Below are positions 13,202 to 20,052 of a DNA stretch of 64,000 bases, piece after piece. A program made the position numbers and the translations under genes. Below the pieces are notes generated by a model, which was given only the letters and a program-made list of their open reading frames with translations, ran no database searches and was not told where the DNA came from. This DNA is from Escherichia phage vB_EcoM_Shinka: the sequence record MZ502379.1; one strand, 5' to 3'. Within the stretch, counting starts at the first letter, position 1. Every line of letters begins with the position of its first letter.

Positions 13202-13687
13202 TTAAGTATTGTAAAACATTCGATGCAATCGTTTATATTGCTGAATCATTCGGTCAGAAAAAGAAATTTGGGTTTCAAGCCATTCAATATATTCTGCCGC
13301 AGCTTGCATCAAATTTCCTTCATAGCCATCGTTATTTTCTTGTGCAGCTAATTTAGCTAATGCGTATGAAATACGTTCACCTTGAAAAGCGGCTTTAGGC
13401 TTCTGAACATCTTGGCTAGTTCTCTCTACAACTTCTTCAATTTCGCCATTTTCAACGGATTCAGTATTCCACAAACACCAGTATGTAATTGGCTTATCAT
13501 AGATGTTAATAATCTTTCCGTCGGAAAGTTCAATTTCAATAATTCCAGTATCAGGTTCTATATCATCTTCACATTCTTTTGCAAGTTCACGAACTTTAAA
13601 GACAGTACCTGCACTAAGTTCCGGCCAGTAATTACATAGCCCTGTATCAACACGATTAATTCTAAACCACTTATCTACTGTAATCAT
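13202..13687 (-). CDS. pin: Pin-like protein (host protease inhibitor), 161 aa from internal ATG
   Basis: Position after gene 49 and size match T4 pin; the ORF track start is a TTG six codons upstream of the first ATG. Confidence 0.55.
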   Translation of the reverse strand: MITVDKWFRINRVDTGLCNYWPELSAGTVFKVRELAKECEDDIEPDTGIIEIELSDGKIINIYDKPITYWCLWNTESVENGEIEEVVERTSQDVQKPKAAFQGERISYALAKLAAQENNDGYEGNLMQAAAEYIEWLETQISFSDRMIQQYKRLHRMFYNT

Positions 13688-13809
13688 GTCCCATCTCCAT
13701 ATCAATTAAGTCATTTATCGTTGGTTCATTATATACTGTTTCTTCATCAGTGTAAACCGGTTCTTCCGGCTCTGGCTCTACAGTTTCCCATCTAGCCGCC
13801 CACCAAGGT

Positions 13810-13980
13810 TTAACCCCGAAGCTTATTAAGTTCTTCATAATCAATCCAGGATTCTAATCCTGATGGCAAATCAGATTCAATTTCCCAAAGAAGCTCTTCA
13901 ATTTTCTGAAGACGATCTAGTTCTTCGGCTGGAATAGTAACCATTGACGGAGTTCTTGATACATTAATATCGTAAATCAT
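13810..13980 (-). CDS. Small acidic hypothetical protein (about 56 aa), below the ORF track cutoff
   Basis: ATG at 13980 opens a frame reading MIYDINVSRTPSMVTIPAEELDRLQKIEELLWEIESDLPSGLESWIDYEELNKLRG; fills the otherwise empty gap between pin and ORF 13983-14198. Confidence 0.3.
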   Translation of the reverse strand: MIYDINVSRTPSMVTIPAEELDRLQKIEELLWEIESDLPSGLESWIDYEELNKLRG

Positions 13981-13982
13981 AT

Positions 13983-14198
13983 TTACCCCAATTTAACCAT
14001 ACAATCGCCGTATTTCCACTTAGAAATAGACTTTTCACCATTAGAATAATAAACTTCGAGTTTAGCACGATTATTTTTAATTTGAATAACCTTGGCTGTC
14101 ATCAAAGTTCCATACCCATAGTAAACTGCAACTTCATCACCTACATATACCGCGCTTCCGCGGTAATCATGAATATAGTCAGTTCCTTCGAGCATCAT
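13983..14198 (-). CDS. Hypothetical small protein (71 aa)
   Basis: ORF whose start overlaps the nrdC stop. Confidence 0.45.
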   Translation of the reverse strand: MMLEGTDYIHDYRGSAVYVGDEVAVYYGYGTLMTAKVIQIKNNRAKLEVYYSNGEKSISKWKYGDCMVKLG

Positions 14199-14459: not shown

Positions 14460-14702
14460 TTATTCCTTAATTCCTAGTACTTGTTTAAAAGTCTCGTCGT
14501 AATCAAGACTTTGGCCCGTTTGTTCTTTATGTTTGTATATAATATCACTTACTTCTGATAGCATATTTTTATATGAACGAGTTAAAGCAGATTTAAGCAC
14601 GCTGTATCTATCAGGAAATTTACCATGTTCATTATAATAAGCTATTGCTAATTCACGGACTGCCTTTTCAGCAGCCTCCATATATTCTTTACGCTTGGTC
14701 AT
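14460..14702 (-). CDS. Hypothetical protein (80 aa)
   Basis: ORF upstream of nrdC, same strand. Confidence 0.5.
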
Positions 14703-14704
14703 TT

Positions 14705-15094
14705 TTAATCCAAAATATTATTAGGCATTGGTTGAACACTCACAAGTTCTTTAAAGAACTCAGTAGAGTCAGGCAATTTAACCATTTCCGGAGCATGCTT
14801 ACTGAATTTATGTTTACATTGACGGCATTTATATTCAAGCTCTGGTTTACGCCAGTTAATCAATTGAACTTGTTCAGTACCGCATTCAGGGCAATTAGGA
14901 ACGTTTTTAGAAGCTCTTTCACGTCGTTCAACCATAGCCATAATAGCATCCCATGCTGGAGGTTTAAAATCTAAATCGTCGCAGCCGTGAATCTTTCCAC
15001 GCATTTCCATATCATCTTCCTCACCAGCCATAATAATTTTAATTAAACTGGAATTACTTGAAGCTGCAATGTCTTCTAATAAACGCTTTTTCAT
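14705..15094 (-). CDS. Zinc-ribbon protein (129 aa)
   Basis: CPECG...(14 aa)...CRQCKH four-cysteine pair near the C-terminus; acidic N-terminus. Confidence 0.5.
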
Positions 15095-16017
15095 TTCAAT
15101 ACCTCAATAGCATTACGTAAACCATTTGCTTTGGCGGTTAAAGCCTTAAGAACTTTAGTATGCTCTTCAATCTGTTTTTCAACTTCAATCAAACGGGCAC
15201 TGAGATATTCGCGTTCTTCTTTCATAGTATCATTTCCATGATTGGATTTTGGGGTAGGTTTAAATTCACTAGGGTCCTTTAATTTAATAACAAATTTAGT
15301 TTCAAACAGCGAAAGACCATAATTCGTATTATCATCAAAGGATTTGACTACATCCATATCAGATAATAACACGCGTAAATTATAAGCCAAAGAACTAATA
15401 GTTTCATTGTGTTTATTAGCTTCGCGTGGTTTCATATACGGAAGATTTTTATATATCTCGTGCGGAGCACAAATGATAATTGACAATTCAAATTGCCCAT
15501 TCTGGGACGATGGAGTGAATTTAGCCGTAACCCAGTCTTTTACATTCACATTAATAGTACGGTTATCACCATGACAAAACAGTCTACGAGAATGCTTAAA
15601 AAGCATATTCACGTTATTATTGAATTCGTGTGAAAATTCACTAGCAAATTTTTCTTTACTATCTTTAGAAAACCATTCTTCTAAATAAGTTCTTTTCACG
15701 TCGTTAATAATATTAAATGTAACAACACTAGCATTTGATACATTAGTCTCAATGTAGCTTGGATACATAAATTTTTTAACATTATTAACAGCTATCACAG
15801 AAGATAGTAATCGGGAACGTTTGAACCACTCGAGCAAAGAACCAAGAGAATGTGAATACGCATTTTGTGTATCTTTACAAATATGGTTTTCCCATCCAAT
15901 ATAGTCTAAAAAATCACGAAGAATATTATTGATTACTGCTCTGTGTCCTATCTGATAATTACGATGTTTAGTAATAAGACTGTCAAAATAATCAATATAA
16001 TGTTTACGAGTTTTCAT
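15091..16017 (-). CDS. Member 1 of a tandem paralogous family with C-terminal coiled coil (308 aa)
   Basis: Starts MKTRK; C-terminal 40 aa heptad-like ([42 protein letters not shown]); shares internal blocks with the next two ORFs. Confidence 0.6.
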   Translation of the reverse strand: MKTRKHYIDYFDSLITKHRNYQIGHRAVINNILRDFLDYIGWENHICKDTQNAYSHSLGSLLEWFKRSRLLSSVIAVNNVKKFMYPSYIETNVSNASVVTFNIINDVKRTYLEEWFSKDSKEKFASEFSHEFNNNVNMLFKHSRRLFCHGDNRTINVNVKDWVTAKFTPSSQNGQFELSIIICAPHEIYKNLPYMKPREANKHNETISSLAYNLRVLLSDMDVVKSFDDNTNYGLSLFETKFVIKLKDPSEFKPTPKSNHGNDTMKEEREYLSARLIEVEKQIEEHTKVLKALTAKANGLRNAIEVLK

Positions 16018-16069
16018 GTTCTTCTCACTTGGTTAATGATTTATACTCCGAGCCATCCTTGGCTTTAAA

Positions 16070-17071
16070 TTACTTAATTAACTGTAAAGCTTGTTCCAGA
16101 CGATCAAGACGATTAACAGATTCTTCCCAAATCCTTTTAGCCTGCTCATATTCTTTCTGCGCTTTATTAGAAATTTCTAGAACTTCTTTATAAGCTTTTT
16201 CTAGTGCAATAACTTCTGGACGAATTTCTATCGGTTCAGGTGAATCATCAAGACATTCCATTAGTTCCTCAAGGGTAGTTTCTTCTTTAGGAGTATTCAC
16301 AATTTCATCACATTTTTGTTGGTAAATTTCTTTATCAGTAGGTGAATAAGCACATTTCACTTCACGAAGGCTAATTACGAGTTTATATCCTTCCCAACCG
16401 CATATATTCTTAAAAGGATATGTATGAATATTTTCTACTGTTTCCATACAAAGTAATGCGGTCTCTAATTGACGAGTTATAGTGCTAGCAATTGAGAAAA
16501 ATTTATTAATATTCTTTTGGTTAGTTTCTGGTGTAAAAAATCCATAATTCACAAAAATAGATACTTTATTTTTATCAAGTTCATATTCTTTTATGATAAT
16601 CATATCAGAAGCCAAAGGATGAATTTGACGATAATCGCCATAACATAATTTAGAAGCTGATTTTAGAATTTGTTTCTTAAAAAGTCTGAAATTACTGATC
16701 CAACGACGAGTAAAAATATTCTCAGGGTCTTCTTTAATATTAAGATGATAAGAATTAACATCACCGAACCAATTGTATCCTACTACATCTTTAGTTCGTT
16801 TAATTTCTTTCCCAAAATTACCAAGAATATCCCGATTAACCAAATATGAAAGAAGACGAGACTCTTTAAAGGTTTTCTTGATAACATCTTTATCTACACG
16901 GCTAGAAATTTTACGAATTTCATGAATAAATTTAGTAGAAGAAACAATACTTGCATCAACACTATTGAGCCATTGATTGATAATAGAAAGAACGCTATTT
17001 TGGCCAAACATCGGTATAGCTTTATCATCAATAACGCTATTGAATGATTTGATATATTCGTTACGAGTCAT
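16070..17071 (-). CDS. Member 2 of the paralogous family (about 333 aa from internal Met)
   Basis: Block FRLFKKQILKSASKL aligns with ALFRRQLKQILSTASRL of member 3; C-terminal coiled coil. Confidence 0.6.
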   Translation of the reverse strand: MTRNEYIKSFNSVIDDKAIPMFGQNSVLSIINQWLNSVDASIVSSTKFIHEIRKISSRVDKDVIKKTFKESRLLSYLVNRDILGNFGKEIKRTKDVVGYNWFGDVNSYHLNIKEDPENIFTRRWISNFRLFKKQILKSASKLCYGDYRQIHPLASDMIIIKEYELDKNKVSIFVNYGFFTPETNQKNINKFFSIASTITRQLETALLCMETVENIHTYPFKNICGWEGYKLVISLREVKCAYSPTDKEIYQQKCDEIVNTPKEETTLEELMECLDDSPEPIEIRPEVIALEKAYKEVLEISNKAQKEYEQAKRIWEESVNRLDRLEQALQLIK

Positions 17072-17128
17072 AATAATCTCCTCAGTAGAAAGTAAAAACA
17101 TTATACCACATCCTTGTGGCAAAGTAAA

Positions 17129-18157
17129 CTAGTTCAGTGCATTTAGTGCATTGTTCAGTTTAGAACGTTGCTTTGTCAGATTTTGAACCCTTGACTGAGC
17201 TTGTTCTAACGCCTTTTCAGCTTCTAGCATTTCATTGGTCGCTTTAACGAGTTCATCATCTACTGCCTTAAGAGACTTTTCAATCGCATCAGCGTGCCAT
17301 TTTTCTACAGGTTTAAAATTTGAATTTTCAGTAGGAAGAAAACTCACTTTATTAAGTTTACATGCATCTATGTTACTTGAACTGTACATCCAACATTTAG
17401 GATCGTTTGATAAGTAATTGGATAAATTTAAATTTAAGGTATCTTGCACTTCCTGCTTTTTCTCTTGAACAATTTCATCCTTTCTCAAAAATTCATATTT
17501 AAATGAAACGATCATATCAAGTTCATATGTTGTTGTATGTTCCCAATTTCGCTCAAAACGAGGTAAAATCTTAGATTGAACAGCAGCAACAACATCCATA
17601 TACTTAAATGCTTCTGTCAGCTGTGATTTAAGACATTCACAAATTGAAAGAGAATTTTTAGTATTAGGCTTAAAGCTAATTCGTGCAGTTCTATTATTTT
17701 CTTTTAACGGTCTTACTTCCATCTGAAGAGTATAACCATCAAATTTCAGGTTCTTTAAGTTAATGTCAGAACCTTTTAATCGACTAGCCGTCGACAAAAT
17801 TTGCTTTAATTGTCTACGGAACAGAGCAATAAATCTCCATTCAATTCGATAATGATTTGGATTGAAAAATCCAGATGATAAATCGACCTTACTTTGACCA
17901 ACGCCTTGAACAATCAAAGGATTTTTATAATCAATAGTTTTACAGAAATCGGTGAGCTGTTCACGAGCAGTCATTTGTGTAATATACCCTGCTTTACTAA
18001 AATTACGCACCCATTCACTGCTATTCGTATACTTAAAGTGATGAATAACACGATTAACTTTATCAGGGTCTAAATTATTTTCACACAAAAATGTCATAAC
18101 ATCACGAGTATAGCTGGCATTACGAACCATATCTTCAATTTGAGAACGAGTTTTCAT
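17129..18157 (-). CDS. Member 3 of the paralogous family (342 aa)
   Basis: Starts MKTRS like member 1; shared internal block with member 2; C-terminal coiled coil. Confidence 0.6.
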   Translation of the reverse strand: MKTRSQIEDMVRNASYTRDVMTFLCENNLDPDKVNRVIHHFKYTNSSEWVRNFSKAGYITQMTAREQLTDFCKTIDYKNPLIVQGVGQSKVDLSSGFFNPNHYRIEWRFIALFRRQLKQILSTASRLKGSDINLKNLKFDGYTLQMEVRPLKENNRTARISFKPNTKNSLSICECLKSQLTEAFKYMDVVAAVQSKILPRFERNWEHTTTYELDMIVSFKYEFLRKDEIVQEKKQEVQDTLNLNLSNYLSNDPKCWMYSSSNIDACKLNKVSFLPTENSNFKPVEKWHADAIEKSLKAVDDELVKATNEMLEAEKALEQAQSRVQNLTKQRSKLNNALNALN

Positions 18158-18165
18158 GGTGTTCC

Positions 18166-19068
18166 TTAAGATTTAAGTAAATCAACGATTTTAATTAATT
18201 TTTCACGCTCAGATTTAGCTTTACTACTCAATCCAGATAGTCTGAAAATTTCATCATCATATTGCTGAATAGAAATATTTAGCTCTTCAATCTGCTTATT
18301 AAAATAAGCAATTTGTTCAGAATGTTTTTCATTACTGCGAACTGGTACAGGTTTTGTAGGTAATTTAGATGAACTGGATTCATCCGGGCGATAAATTAAA
18401 ATACAACTTGAACCAATCGGACATTTAGCACCAGATGAATATTCTAATGTTCCAGCTTCTTTTAAAACTTCAAAAGCTAAACAGAGATGATGCCCCATAT
18501 TGACATAATCTGTAGAGTGAGCTCTGATGTAATAATCATCTCCACGAGTACTAAATTTAAAGCATTTAAGGTCTTCTGTATTATTGGTCTTAAAAATCAT
18601 TTGTTTATCTAGACCTTTAGCTAATCGAGCGCCTAATGCTAATAATCGTCGTTGATTTTCCCACAAATCCGCAATCATTTGGTCAAATGATAATTTCGGC
18701 ATTAGTCGACCATAAAGGTCATATCCTTTATTATAATTGCGAAGGATTTCACTCGCATTAATACGAGACAACGCTCCAATTTTATTAAGGGCTTTCATGA
18801 TGCGATTAGATAAACCCATTCCAGATCCGTTTGTTCGTTGCAAATGTTTATCTAATCCAAACCCAATATCAACTTTAAATTTATCTAAAATTTCAGCATG
18901 AACATCTCTGTCAATAACATTCAAATCCAAAGTTGGGTTAAATCTATGAAAAAATTTATCTGGCTCTCCACGACGAAGTACAGTCCATTCATTTAATTTT
19001 TTATTAACTAAAGATTTAATTACTGCATTGACATTATTAATTACTACTGACATATTTTTCTCACTCAA
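18166..19068 (-). CDS. Protein with C-terminal coiled coil, possible fourth family member (300 aa)
   Basis: Same size class and C-terminal coiled coil (QIEELNISIQQYDDEIFRLSGLSSKAKSEREKLIKIVDLLKS); N-terminal domain similarity to members 1-3 is not evident by eye. Confidence 0.55.
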   Translation of the reverse strand: MSEKNMSVVINNVNAVIKSLVNKKLNEWTVLRRGEPDKFFHRFNPTLDLNVIDRDVHAEILDKFKVDIGFGLDKHLQRTNGSGMGLSNRIMKALNKIGALSRINASEILRNYNKGYDLYGRLMPKLSFDQMIADLWENQRRLLALGARLAKGLDKQMIFKTNNTEDLKCFKFSTRGDDYYIRAHSTDYVNMGHHLCLAFEVLKEAGTLEYSSGAKCPIGSSCILIYRPDESSSSKLPTKPVPVRSNEKHSEQIAYFNKQIEELNISIQQYDDEIFRLSGLSSKAKSEREKLIKIVDLLKS

Positions 19069-19469
19069 TTTTCAATTTTACTAAATACACAGAATATGAT
19101 GGAAAAGACTATATAAGCACCGCATACAGATTGAACTAATACCATTCCAAAGAACCAAACAATATTATCAAACAATGTCTGTTTTACGTCGAAAGGACGT
19201 AAACTTACAGTAATATTATCGCCTTTTTCTATTGATGAATACATCTCTGGTGAAATATATTCACTAAATCTATAACCGTCTTTGAGTTCATATACGGCAA
19301 TAAACGATAAACTAGACCCCTTTCCTTGAGTTCCTGTAAGGGTATTAACTACAGTAACATCATAATCTTTATAATGCATATAATCATTAATTGCATAATA
19401 ACCATATGCAACTACTACACATAAACAACATATCAATAAATTCAATCTTTTAATTATCAACTGTTTCAT
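19065..19469 (-). CDS. Membrane protein (134 aa, N- and C-terminal TM helices)
   Basis: Hydrophobic segments LNLLICCLCVVVAYGYYAI and IVWFFGMVLVQSVCGAYIVFSIIFCVF. Confidence 0.55.
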   Translation of the reverse strand: MKQLIIKRLNLLICCLCVVVAYGYYAINDYMHYKDYDVTVVNTLTGTQGKGSSLSFIAVYELKDGYRFSEYISPEMYSSIEKGDNITVSLRPFDVKQTLFDNIVWFFGMVLVQSVCGAYIVFSIIFCVFSKIEN

Positions 19470-19524
19470 AATAATCTCAATTAAAAGGGCTTAGAACCAT
19501 TATACCATCCTTGGTATAAAGCGG

Positions 19525-20052
19525 TTATGCGAGTACCGTCTTTAACCGTTCTTCAAACTTCCGAAGAGTATTTTGGCGTTCAGCTCTTTGCTTTTTGTAA
19601 GTTTCAATACGCTCTGAAATGAGAGTGTATCGTTCATTTACTGATTCTTTCATAAAATCAGGAATTTCACGAGAAGCTTTAATCTCGTCAAATTTATCAA
19701 TAACTGCTTGCTCTTCAGCAATTAAGTTATCATACATCAAAATATCTTTCTTGATGAACTCAATATCTTCTTGAGTTACACGAGATAATTTAGATGCTTT
19801 ATCCTTTTTGTACTGTTCGTTAGTATCACGAGACCAGTGTAATGTACGATTTTTATTCGTATTCTTGTAAATTTCTACAATACCAATCTCATCGATAATA
19901 ACGATCCAATTCCAACGAGATTTGTAAATTTGTCCTCCGTCAACCGTGATTTCACCTCCGATTGAGATGTCATTAAAGAACTTGCTTTGTGCTTCAGATT
20001 TAAATTTACCATCGTTGTAATTTACCAGGTTGAAAATATCTTTAGCGTTCAT
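19525..20052 (-). CDS. Hypothetical protein (175 aa, helical charged C-terminus)
   Basis: ATG at 20052 preceded by GGAGG RBS and an early promoter. Confidence 0.55.
   Translation of the reverse strand: MNAKDIFNLVNYNDGKFKSEAQSKFFNDISIGGEITVDGGQIYKSRWNWIVIIDEIGIVEIYKNTNKNRTLHWSRDTNEQYKKDKASKLSRVTQEDIEFIKKDILMYDNLIAEEQAVIDKFDEIKASREIPDFMKESVNERYTLISERIETYKKQRAERQNTLRKFEERLKTVLA

Follow-up and report, generated by a model that had tools for sequence, protein, structure and literature searches.

Four adjacent nrdC.x genes of a T4-like phage encode coiled-coil-tailed proteins that are probably diverged relatives of the Dsr1 antagonist NrdC.5

T-even phages carry clusters of early accessory genes of small to medium size, each directed against a different host system, of which the dmd-tifA-adfA anti-toxin island is an example, and the genes of such anti-defence islands are described as readily lost, amplified or exchanged (PMC9391042). 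In the same study, a T4 clone with compensatory deletions failed to plate on Escherichia coli ECOR17 owing to Dsr1, a sirtuin (SIR2) defence of that strain, and plasmid-borne T4 nrdC.5 alone restored plating on MG1655 with dsr1 (Srikant et al. 2022, PMC9391042). Here we describe four consecutive minus-strand genes, nrdC.3, nrdC.4, nrdC.5 and nrdC.6, in a 64,000-nucleotide stretch of Escherichia phage vB_EcoM_Shinka (record MZ502379.1; the whole stretch is called the window below). Judged by sequence, nrdC.5 of the window is the ortholog of the Dsr1-overcoming T4 gene; the activity was reported for the T4 protein only, which is ~92-94% identical, and the other three proteins appear to share its architecture and tail. 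Unlike T4 NrdC.5, the products of nrdC.3, nrdC.4 and nrdC.6 lie below the PF23882 threshold and belong to other families (phrog_1435/PF26897 and phrog_2257/PF26899), and unlike the dmd-tifA-adfA island, the four adjacent members would here not be unrelated to one another but paralogs with a fold in common.

A further parallel is DSAD1 of phage SPbeta, a small protein which, by binding DSR2, keeps the tail tube protein from activating it (PMC10973363, PMC10981675, PMC11087589). Like DSAD1, NrdC.5 is a phage protein that counters a SIR2-type NADase defence, and DSAD1, being non-enzymatic, serves as a model for the mechanism proposed below. Unlike DSAD1, to which no sequence or fold relation was found in Foldseek and PDB searches, NrdC.5 is directed against Dsr1, whose TPR sensor recognises major capsid proteins (2026 preprint, PMC12803255). 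The genes, their DUF families, the function of nrdC.5 and the anti-defence island are already known, whereas the four-way relation, its extension to single-copy Straboviridae genes and the tail-terminator-like core appear to be new, no published description having been found.

Relationship of the four proteins

In the reading that we favour, with a probability of about 60%, nrdC.3 to nrdC.6 are early, non-essential accessory genes encoding diverged paralogs of one superfamily confined to Straboviridae, which act as target-binding inhibitors. The preliminary description of this DNA, made from the letters alone, had taken the genes for tandem paralogs of similar size; the sizes agree (Table 1), and the paralogy holds in sequence profiles for nrdC.3, nrdC.4 and nrdC.5, whereas for nrdC.6 it appears in predicted structure only. 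Family alignments were built from 225 database homologues and the open reading frames (ORFs) of 15 related loci and were compared all against all. Full-length hhalign gave 97.6% for nrdC.3/nrdC.4 (E 2.7e-12, 210 columns) and 74% for nrdC.4/nrdC.5 (E 2.8e-5, 235 columns). Because weak full-length matches lay in the tail only, the comparison was repeated without tails against 150 column shuffles, where nrdC.3/nrdC.4 scored 84.7 (z 24) and nrdC.4/nrdC.5 scored 38.5 against a null of 15.1±2.8 (maximum 24.0; z 8.4), a value reached by 0 of the 150 shuffles; nrdC.6 stayed at background. On these profiles the globular parts of nrdC.3, nrdC.4 and nrdC.5 share homology, the case for paralogy being strong for nrdC.3/nrdC.4 and moderate but real for nrdC.4/nrdC.5.

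The paralogs also have motifs in common: an N-terminal TRx[EQH][YFI]I, a core-helix A[ST][KR]L..GD and ..M[DE][VT]V. An internal block that had been noticed by eye in nrdC.4 and nrdC.5 proved to be equivalent in the two, its copies being superposed by profile-profile alignment within helix 119-142 of the nrdC.4 model (Table 1). In the nrdC.6 family, conservation is highest over NQRRLLALGARLAxGxDKQM, which occupies the same structural place as ILKSAxKLxxGDxRT in nrdC.4, ILSTASRLKGSD in nrdC.5 and MLFKHSRRLFCHGDNRT in nrdC.3. The MKTR start said to be common to nrdC.3 and nrdC.5 was also seen, and their first 12 nucleotides, ATGAAAACTCGT, are identical. Apart from this start, DNA comparison between the paralogs gave only chance-level matches of 14-28 nt, and therefore no sign of recent gene conversion.

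The coiled-coil tails that had been assigned to all four proteins were borne out: the last 42 residues of each form six unbroken heptads, with 75-92% of the a/d positions hydrophobic (shuffle p from 0 to 0.02). In each protein no other stretch has better heptads than the tail, the register counted from the C-terminus is identical in all four, and a similar closing motif is found, L..A[ILV]..L[KN], with LIKIVDLLKS in nrdC.6. In nrdC.5 the hydrophobic a/d fraction is 0.92 over the last 42 residues and 1.00 in the best 35-residue window, with 0 of 2000 shuffles matching the observed value. No comparable heptad pattern occurs in the controls nrdC.2 and nrdC.9. Within the nrdC.4 family the tail is the most conserved segment (mean column identity 0.72) and the core the least conserved.

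Structure prediction, which had been proposed as a check, was run for nrdC.4 and nrdC.6 and gave an architecture in common. The AlphaFold2 models, with mean predicted local distance difference test (pLDDT) scores of 81.4 for nrdC.4 and 77.8 for nrdC.6, have the same order of elements: about six helices at the N-terminus are followed by a small beta meander, two long helices then alternate with two beta hairpins, helix first, and both models end in a low-confidence linker and a terminal helix of about 50 residues. In a Foldseek search of predicted viral structures, the matches of the nrdC.4 model included a 308-aa nrdC.3 protein at E 1.6e-8 and, at E 2e-5 with probability 1.00, the NrdC.6 of phage JS10, as well as proteins of 300-370 aa from Straboviridae of Pectobacterium, Acinetobacter, Enterobacter, Klebsiella, Erwinia and Serratia. 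The same proteins of phages IME523, PM2, Acj9, Acj61, Mineola and PS2 were matched by both the nrdC.4 and the nrdC.6 model. The membership of nrdC.6 in the superfamily is the main uncertainty, and the model-based link is good but inconclusive. That no catalytic family would be recognisable also held, since searches of Pfam, NCBIfam, PADLOC and PDB sequences returned no enzyme family; the PDB sequence searches gave no meaningful relative of known structure.

Distribution and rates of change

The window belongs to Tequatrovirus, and the region of the four genes has 99.6% DNA identity to Escherichia phage vB_EcoM_JB75; the block is matched by 506 of 50,697 phage records, 461 of them over at least 80% of its length, and nearly all are Tequatrovirus. 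Protein-level searches (tblastn) reached 653 records with nrdC.3, 553 with nrdC.4, 528 with nrdC.5 and 741 with nrdC.6, compared with 1403 for NrdC, and hit one place in nearly every record. Copy number, which the preliminary description had proposed to compare across T-even genomes, is 1, 3 or 4 according to genus. Tequatrovirus has all four genes. Dhakavirus-type loci (L007-L015) carry nrdC.6, a form of nrdC.5 at 21-28% identity and nrdC.4, without nrdC.3, and Mosigvirus WFbE185 carries nrdC.6-like (32%), nrdC.5-like (24%) and nrdC.3-like (55%) genes, without nrdC.4. A single coiled-coil-tailed protein adjoins nrdC in Acinetobacter phages; one lies ~0.8-1.8 kb upstream of nrdC in Moonvirus CF1 and Klebsiella phage Roth34, and one ~7 kb downstream of nrdC, past nrdD, in Enterobacter phage EC-F1. 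At E 3.3e-7 the nrdC.4 model matches a BFVD entry to which the Acinetobacter protein is 97.6% identical. Because of this match and the distribution over genera, we regard the family as probably located on, or close to, a conserved locus of long standing, with an expansion to three or four members among the T-even phages.

The single-copy proteins of ~315-335 aa (CF1, Roth34, EC-F1, AB-Navy71) were tried as a sequence bridge to nrdC.5 or nrdC.6; the links were marginal (best E 2e-5 and 1.3e-4 in a tiny database, hhalign at most 48%), and the bridge was discarded as unusable. As a separate observation, the nrdC.4 model matches two BFVD entries with consecutive accessions from Acinetobacter phage Acj61, E5E4A1 (330 aa) and E5E4A2 (304 aa), which hints at an independent predicted tandem pair in Acj61, compared with one copy in Acj9 and AB-Navy71.

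Loss and rearrangement are seen within the array. In a phmmer search against 1.84 billion representatives, the globular part of nrdC.3 found 4 proteins, all of them nrdC.3, the narrowest member of the array; nrdC.3 is the youngest or most restricted paralog, nearest to nrdC.4. In phage vB_EcoM_G8 (L006, 7971-9003) nrdC.4 is split into two ORFs of 193 and 158 aa, and T2 has a truncated nrdC.4, with a 155-aa fragment entry (BFVD entries listed: A0A482N302, A0A2Z5WKJ2); as read from these sequences, both are natural inactivations of one paralog. On a 167-kb contig, the 299-aa protein P0119 joins the C-terminal halves of nrdC.5 and nrdC.3 in frame, in this order, with the junction at NKV|NMLFKH, so that nrdC.4 has been lost by deletion.

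Among seven Tequatrovirus copies, the ratio of nonsynonymous to synonymous substitution rates (dN/dS) was 0.28 for nrdC.3, 0.18 for nrdC.4, 0.16 for nrdC.5 and 0.12 for nrdC.6, which is 6-14 times the 0.02 of gp49, nrdC and nrdC.8. The four genes evolve faster than their neighbours, without positive selection over the whole gene, and the diversifying selection put forward in the preliminary description was not demonstrated, the gene-wide values being well below 1. Discrete alleles are found for nrdC.3, with 137 records at 90% identity or more, 313 at 60-80% and 201 below 60%; between two of these alleles, identity is 47% in the core and 37% in the linker, compared with 85% in the N-terminal domain and 78% in the tail. 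The pattern is one of faster evolution, discrete nrdC.3 alleles and gene gain and loss between genera.

Gene limits, families and neighbours

The names of the four genes follow the RB32 record, in whose annotation nrdC.2 and nrdC.7 flank the array and the array lies upstream of nrdC, the glutaredoxin gene. With 28-37% G+C the region is AT-rich, its minus-strand ORFs are tightly packed, and the gaps between the four genes range from -4 to 57 nt. The limits given earlier stood for the first three genes; the fourth most likely starts at ATG 19053 (295 aa) rather than at TTG 19068, because GAGTGAG precedes this ATG, homologues begin with MS and other genomes annotate 295-296 aa. For nrdC.4, the start at 17071 seems better than the longer 343-aa annotation of some records, because the Shine-Dalgarno sequence GAGGAG lies upstream and the MTR start is invariant across homologues.

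Table 1. Positions of the genes, predicted protein segments and other features in the window
Feature	Coordinates	Strand	Description	Basis
nrdC.3	15091..16017	-	308 aa	phrog_1435 (E 6.4e-101); RB32 annotation
nrdC.4	16070..17071	-	333 aa from ATG	phrog_1435 (E 5.6e-168); PF26897 precomputed on homologues
nrdC.5	17129..18157	-	342 aa	Pfam DUF7235 (PF23882); phrog_2351
nrdC.6	18166..19053	-	295 aa from the most likely start	phrog_2257 (E 1.8e-152); PF26899 precomputed on homologues
nrdC.3 tail, residues 263-308	15094..15231	-	predicted coiled coil	a/d hydrophobic fraction 0.83, shuffle p 0.005; coordinates confirmed by translation
nrdC.4 tail, residues 285-333	16073..16219	-	predicted coiled coil	model helix 285-332; heptads
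nrdC.5 tail, residues 289-342	17132..17293	-	predicted coiled coil	heptad analysis
nrdC.6 tail, residues 244-295	18169..18324	-	predicted coiled coil	model helices 245-272 and 277-294; heptads, shuffle p 0.003
nrdC.4 alpha/beta core, residues 86-236	16364..16816	-	beta meander, long helix, hairpin, long helix, hairpin	model
nrdC.6 alpha/beta core, residues 107-222	18388..18735	-	same element order	model; Foldseek targets in common with nrdC.4
nrdC.4 core helix with shared block	16646..16717	-	IFTRRWISNFRLFKKQILKSASKL	hhalign to nrdC.5 RFIALFRRQLKQILSTASRLKGS
nrdC.5 counterpart helix	17768..17836	-		hhalign
Promoter-like site, nrdC.5-nrdC.4 gap	17100..17128	-	GTTTACT, 17 nt, TATAAT, with TG	consensus scan
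nrdC.8	19525..20052	-	175 aa; ortholog of Bas37_0203 (phage KarlGJung), 99.4% identical	NrdC.8 cluster; exact-sequence look-up

The database families separate the genes, with nrdC.3 and nrdC.4 in phrog_1435, nrdC.5 in phrog_2351 and nrdC.6 in phrog_2257. The nrdC.5 protein matches PF23882 with 402.1 bits (E 2.4e-120; residues 1-342, model 1-307; cut-off 30 bits), and the other three miss this cut-off, nrdC.3 with 11.4 bits and nrdC.4 and nrdC.6 without a match. It is 93.8% identical by tblastn to that of a T4 record, and its position between nrdC.6 and nrdC.4, upstream of nrdC, follows the order of RB32 and T4. Precomputed assignments give PF26897 for every nrdC.4 homologue as well as for the nrdC.3 half of P0119, and PF26899 for all 105 nrdC.6 homologues. 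In the 90%-identity cluster that holds nrdC.4 of the window, products of nrdC.4 and nrdC.5 are mixed, the representative being P0089, an nrdC.5 protein; this is a clustering artefact that calls for caution with cluster sizes, the two being unalignable at that level.

Many phage records label nrdC.2-nrdC.8 'thioredoxin', and one UniRef cluster names NrdC.8 'Tail sheath protein'; neither label is backed by the sequences or the models. A thioredoxin or glutaredoxin identity was rejected, as no thioredoxin-family match was found in Pfam or NCBIfam and the models show a helical bundle with an alpha/beta core, and the 'thioredoxin' labels appear to have been carried over from the gene name nrdC.N.

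The promoter-like site in the nrdC.5-nrdC.4 gap (Table 1) presumably resembles a T4 early promoter. The number of consensus matches across the region was not above that in shuffles, and the site is a lead only. An extended -10 motif, TGGTATAATG, occurs on the minus strand at 17093-17108 and 19492-19507, one copy preceding nrdC.4 and the other nrdC.7, each in the intergenic gap, and the former has the -35-like hexamer GTTTACT; judged by sequence, the copies may be early promoters that split the array into transcription units.

The surrounding genes have published anti-defence activities. According to a 2025 preprint, nrdC.1 is a Septu inhibitor and Bas37_0203 a Druantia III inhibitor, and the name nrdC.8 is not used there for the latter; its transposon screen (HIDEN-SEQ) found T4 nrdC.3-nrdC.8 all non-essential on the laboratory host (bioRxiv 10.1101/2025.11.20.689424). 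T6 gp49.2, just beyond nrdC, inhibits OLD (PMC13096335). Because nrdC.1 and gp49.2 are reported inhibitors, the region as a whole, gene 49.1 through nrdC.8, behaves as an anti-defence island. The four proteins resemble NrdC.1 and NrdC.8/Bas37_0203 in lying in this early-gene island, in being non-essential and in lacking known domains, and the C-terminus of NrdC.8 likewise has six heptads; unlike the four, NrdC.8 (175 aa) and NrdC.1 (80 aa) are far shorter, and hhalign gave no profile similarity that would make nrdC.8 a fifth member. The nrdC.4 model had only a weak Foldseek match to a 175-aa KPV15 protein (E 0.01), and nrdC.8 is possibly a short relative of the four.

Further along the minus strand, nrdC.1 lies at 14460-14702, and the small ORFs at 13671-14198, which lie between pin and nrdC, do not have the sizes of their T4 equivalents. 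The nrdC.2 gene (14705-15094, minus strand) has a zinc-ribbon signature with two Cys pairs and weak Pfam Zn_ribbon matches; its length differs even among close relatives, 129 aa here compared with 73-122 aa in other loci, and only its first ~100 residues align to a 104-aa form with 79% identity, which suggests a variable C-terminus. A small predicted membrane protein with hydrophobic N- and C-terminal stretches is encoded by nrdC.7 (19065-19469, minus strand), which is present in Tequatrovirus and not in the Dhakavirus-type or Mosigvirus loci and has the top pairwise dN/dS of the region, 0.86.

Proposed action, competing explanations and significance

The build proposed for all four proteins comprises a helical bundle at the N-terminus, an alpha/beta core of helix-hairpin-helix-hairpin order, a disordered linker and a six-heptad C-terminal coiled coil. 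They would act as non-enzymatic inhibitors through stoichiometric target binding: the coiled coil would oligomerise each protein, and the variable core would bind a host immune protein, probably jointly with the N-terminal domain, and so block the sensing or effector step of this host protein, with a target of its own for each paralog and each allele. Direct binding of NrdC.5 to its target is proposed by analogy. The host-interaction or anti-defence role expected in the preliminary description agrees with the published activities of the island genes and of nrdC.5 against Dsr1; for nrdC.3, nrdC.4 and nrdC.6 we infer it.

Several points weigh against this reading. Beyond the tail, full-length hhalign aligned nothing of nrdC.6 with any other member, and with tails removed its z values were 0.5-1.3, the observed score being matched by 15-38 of the 150 shuffles. 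The Foldseek template modelling scores (TM-scores) are low, 0.2-0.5, as is expected with multi-domain models and a flexible linker, and helix-rich models can inflate Foldseek scores; the nrdC.5 fold is deduced from an hhalign match of 57-74%. Gene-wide dN/dS below 1 gives no whole-gene sign of positive selection. Anti-defence activity has been experimentally reported for nrdC.5 alone among the four, and NrdC.5 could act on Dsr1 indirectly, through NAD+ levels or the trigger, rather than by binding. In the comparison listed in the available part of the T4 screen, insertion mutants of nrdC.3, nrdC.4 and nrdC.6 had no significant fitness change (bioRxiv 10.1101/2025.11.20.689424).

This last result, together with the lack of a known defence target for nrdC.3, nrdC.4 and nrdC.6 and their location among nrdC, nrdD and nrdG genes, would suit paralogs other than nrdC.5 being early host-takeover or physiology proteins, for instance modulators of host proteins or of nucleotide metabolism. 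We consider this unlikely, though the most credible of the alternatives: the three genes are non-essential on the laboratory host in that screen, their presence varies between genera, nrdC.3 has discrete alleles, Pfam and NCBIfam detect no metabolic domain, and an anti-defence function is proven for one paralog and at least three neighbours. The background-level profile scores of nrdC.6, and TM-scores of only 0.36-0.41 to nrdC.6-type targets, speak instead for paralogy of nrdC.3, nrdC.4 and nrdC.5 only, with nrdC.6 an unrelated protein resembling them by chance in size, helical N-terminus and coiled-coil tail. This is less likely again, given the Foldseek match of the nrdC.4 model to JS10 NrdC.6, the identical order of secondary structure in the two models, and the six same-sized Straboviridae proteins that both models match while unrelated coiled-coil proteins are not matched; moreover, the most conserved nrdC.6 stretch sits at the structural position of the nrdC.4 motif, and nrdC.6 adjoins the others and has the same tail. 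A chance resemblance of all four in size and composition, to which the weak pairwise BLASTP (best E 0.012, nrdC.3 vs nrdC.4) would lend itself, deserves almost no credence, since the profile-profile z values over column-shuffle nulls refute it for nrdC.3, nrdC.4 and nrdC.5, nrdC.3 and nrdC.4 lie in one PHROG, and Foldseek cross-matches link the families.

The adjacency of the genes on one strand with such short gaps, the equal length and heptad register of the tails and the conservation of the tail within each family also at non-core positions could further mean that the four proteins assemble into one hetero-oligomeric complex, joined through similar tails and serving one joint function instead of acting on four separate targets. 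We doubt this even more than an unrelated nrdC.6: genera hold 1, 3 or 4 members in differing combinations, nrdC.4 is split in phage G8, and the tail sequences are unlike between paralogs. Moreover, nrdC.5 alone restored plating on Dsr1 cells from a plasmid, the accessible text leaving unstated which neighbours the phage clone had retained (PMC9391042).

The core of nrdC.4 was also compared with tail terminators and lambda gpU-type neck proteins (e.g. 3fz2, 8q01_M, 6tba_4A), and in the model its fold resembles that of a tail terminator; Pfam gave no match to any tail-terminator family. The nrdC.x genes of T4 are early genes; they are non-essential, which disfavours a structural role in the virion. 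A more speculative version of the preferred inhibitor reading, which we hold to be improbable and place below the joint complex, is that the core is an exapted tail-terminator-type domain and that the proteins are early, oligomeric decoys with a virion fold, which would occupy, without triggering them, sensors of bacterial immune proteins that recognise shape, among them the TPR sensors of Dsr1 and of the Avs families, each paralog or allele being tuned to a different sensor. If this were true, the array would be a family of structural-protein decoys growing and shrinking with the host sensor repertoire.

Under the preferred reading of diverged target-binding inhibitors, the variable alpha/beta core is likely the specificity module and the conserved coiled coil the common scaffold, and therefore allele and domain swaps could be designed directly. 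Because of their apparent ancestry and architecture in common with the Dsr1 antagonist NrdC.5, nrdC.3, nrdC.4 and nrdC.6, present in more than 500 sequenced phages, would be candidate immune-evasion factors. Many T4 genes are still of unassigned function, and in recent years inhibitors of OLD, Septu, Dsr1 and Druantia III have come from the genes between 49.1 and nrdC.11. The series of 1, 3 and 4 copies across Straboviridae may be regarded as a natural experiment on the expansion of an anti-defence family, which could be relevant to the choice of broad-host-range therapeutic T4-like phages.

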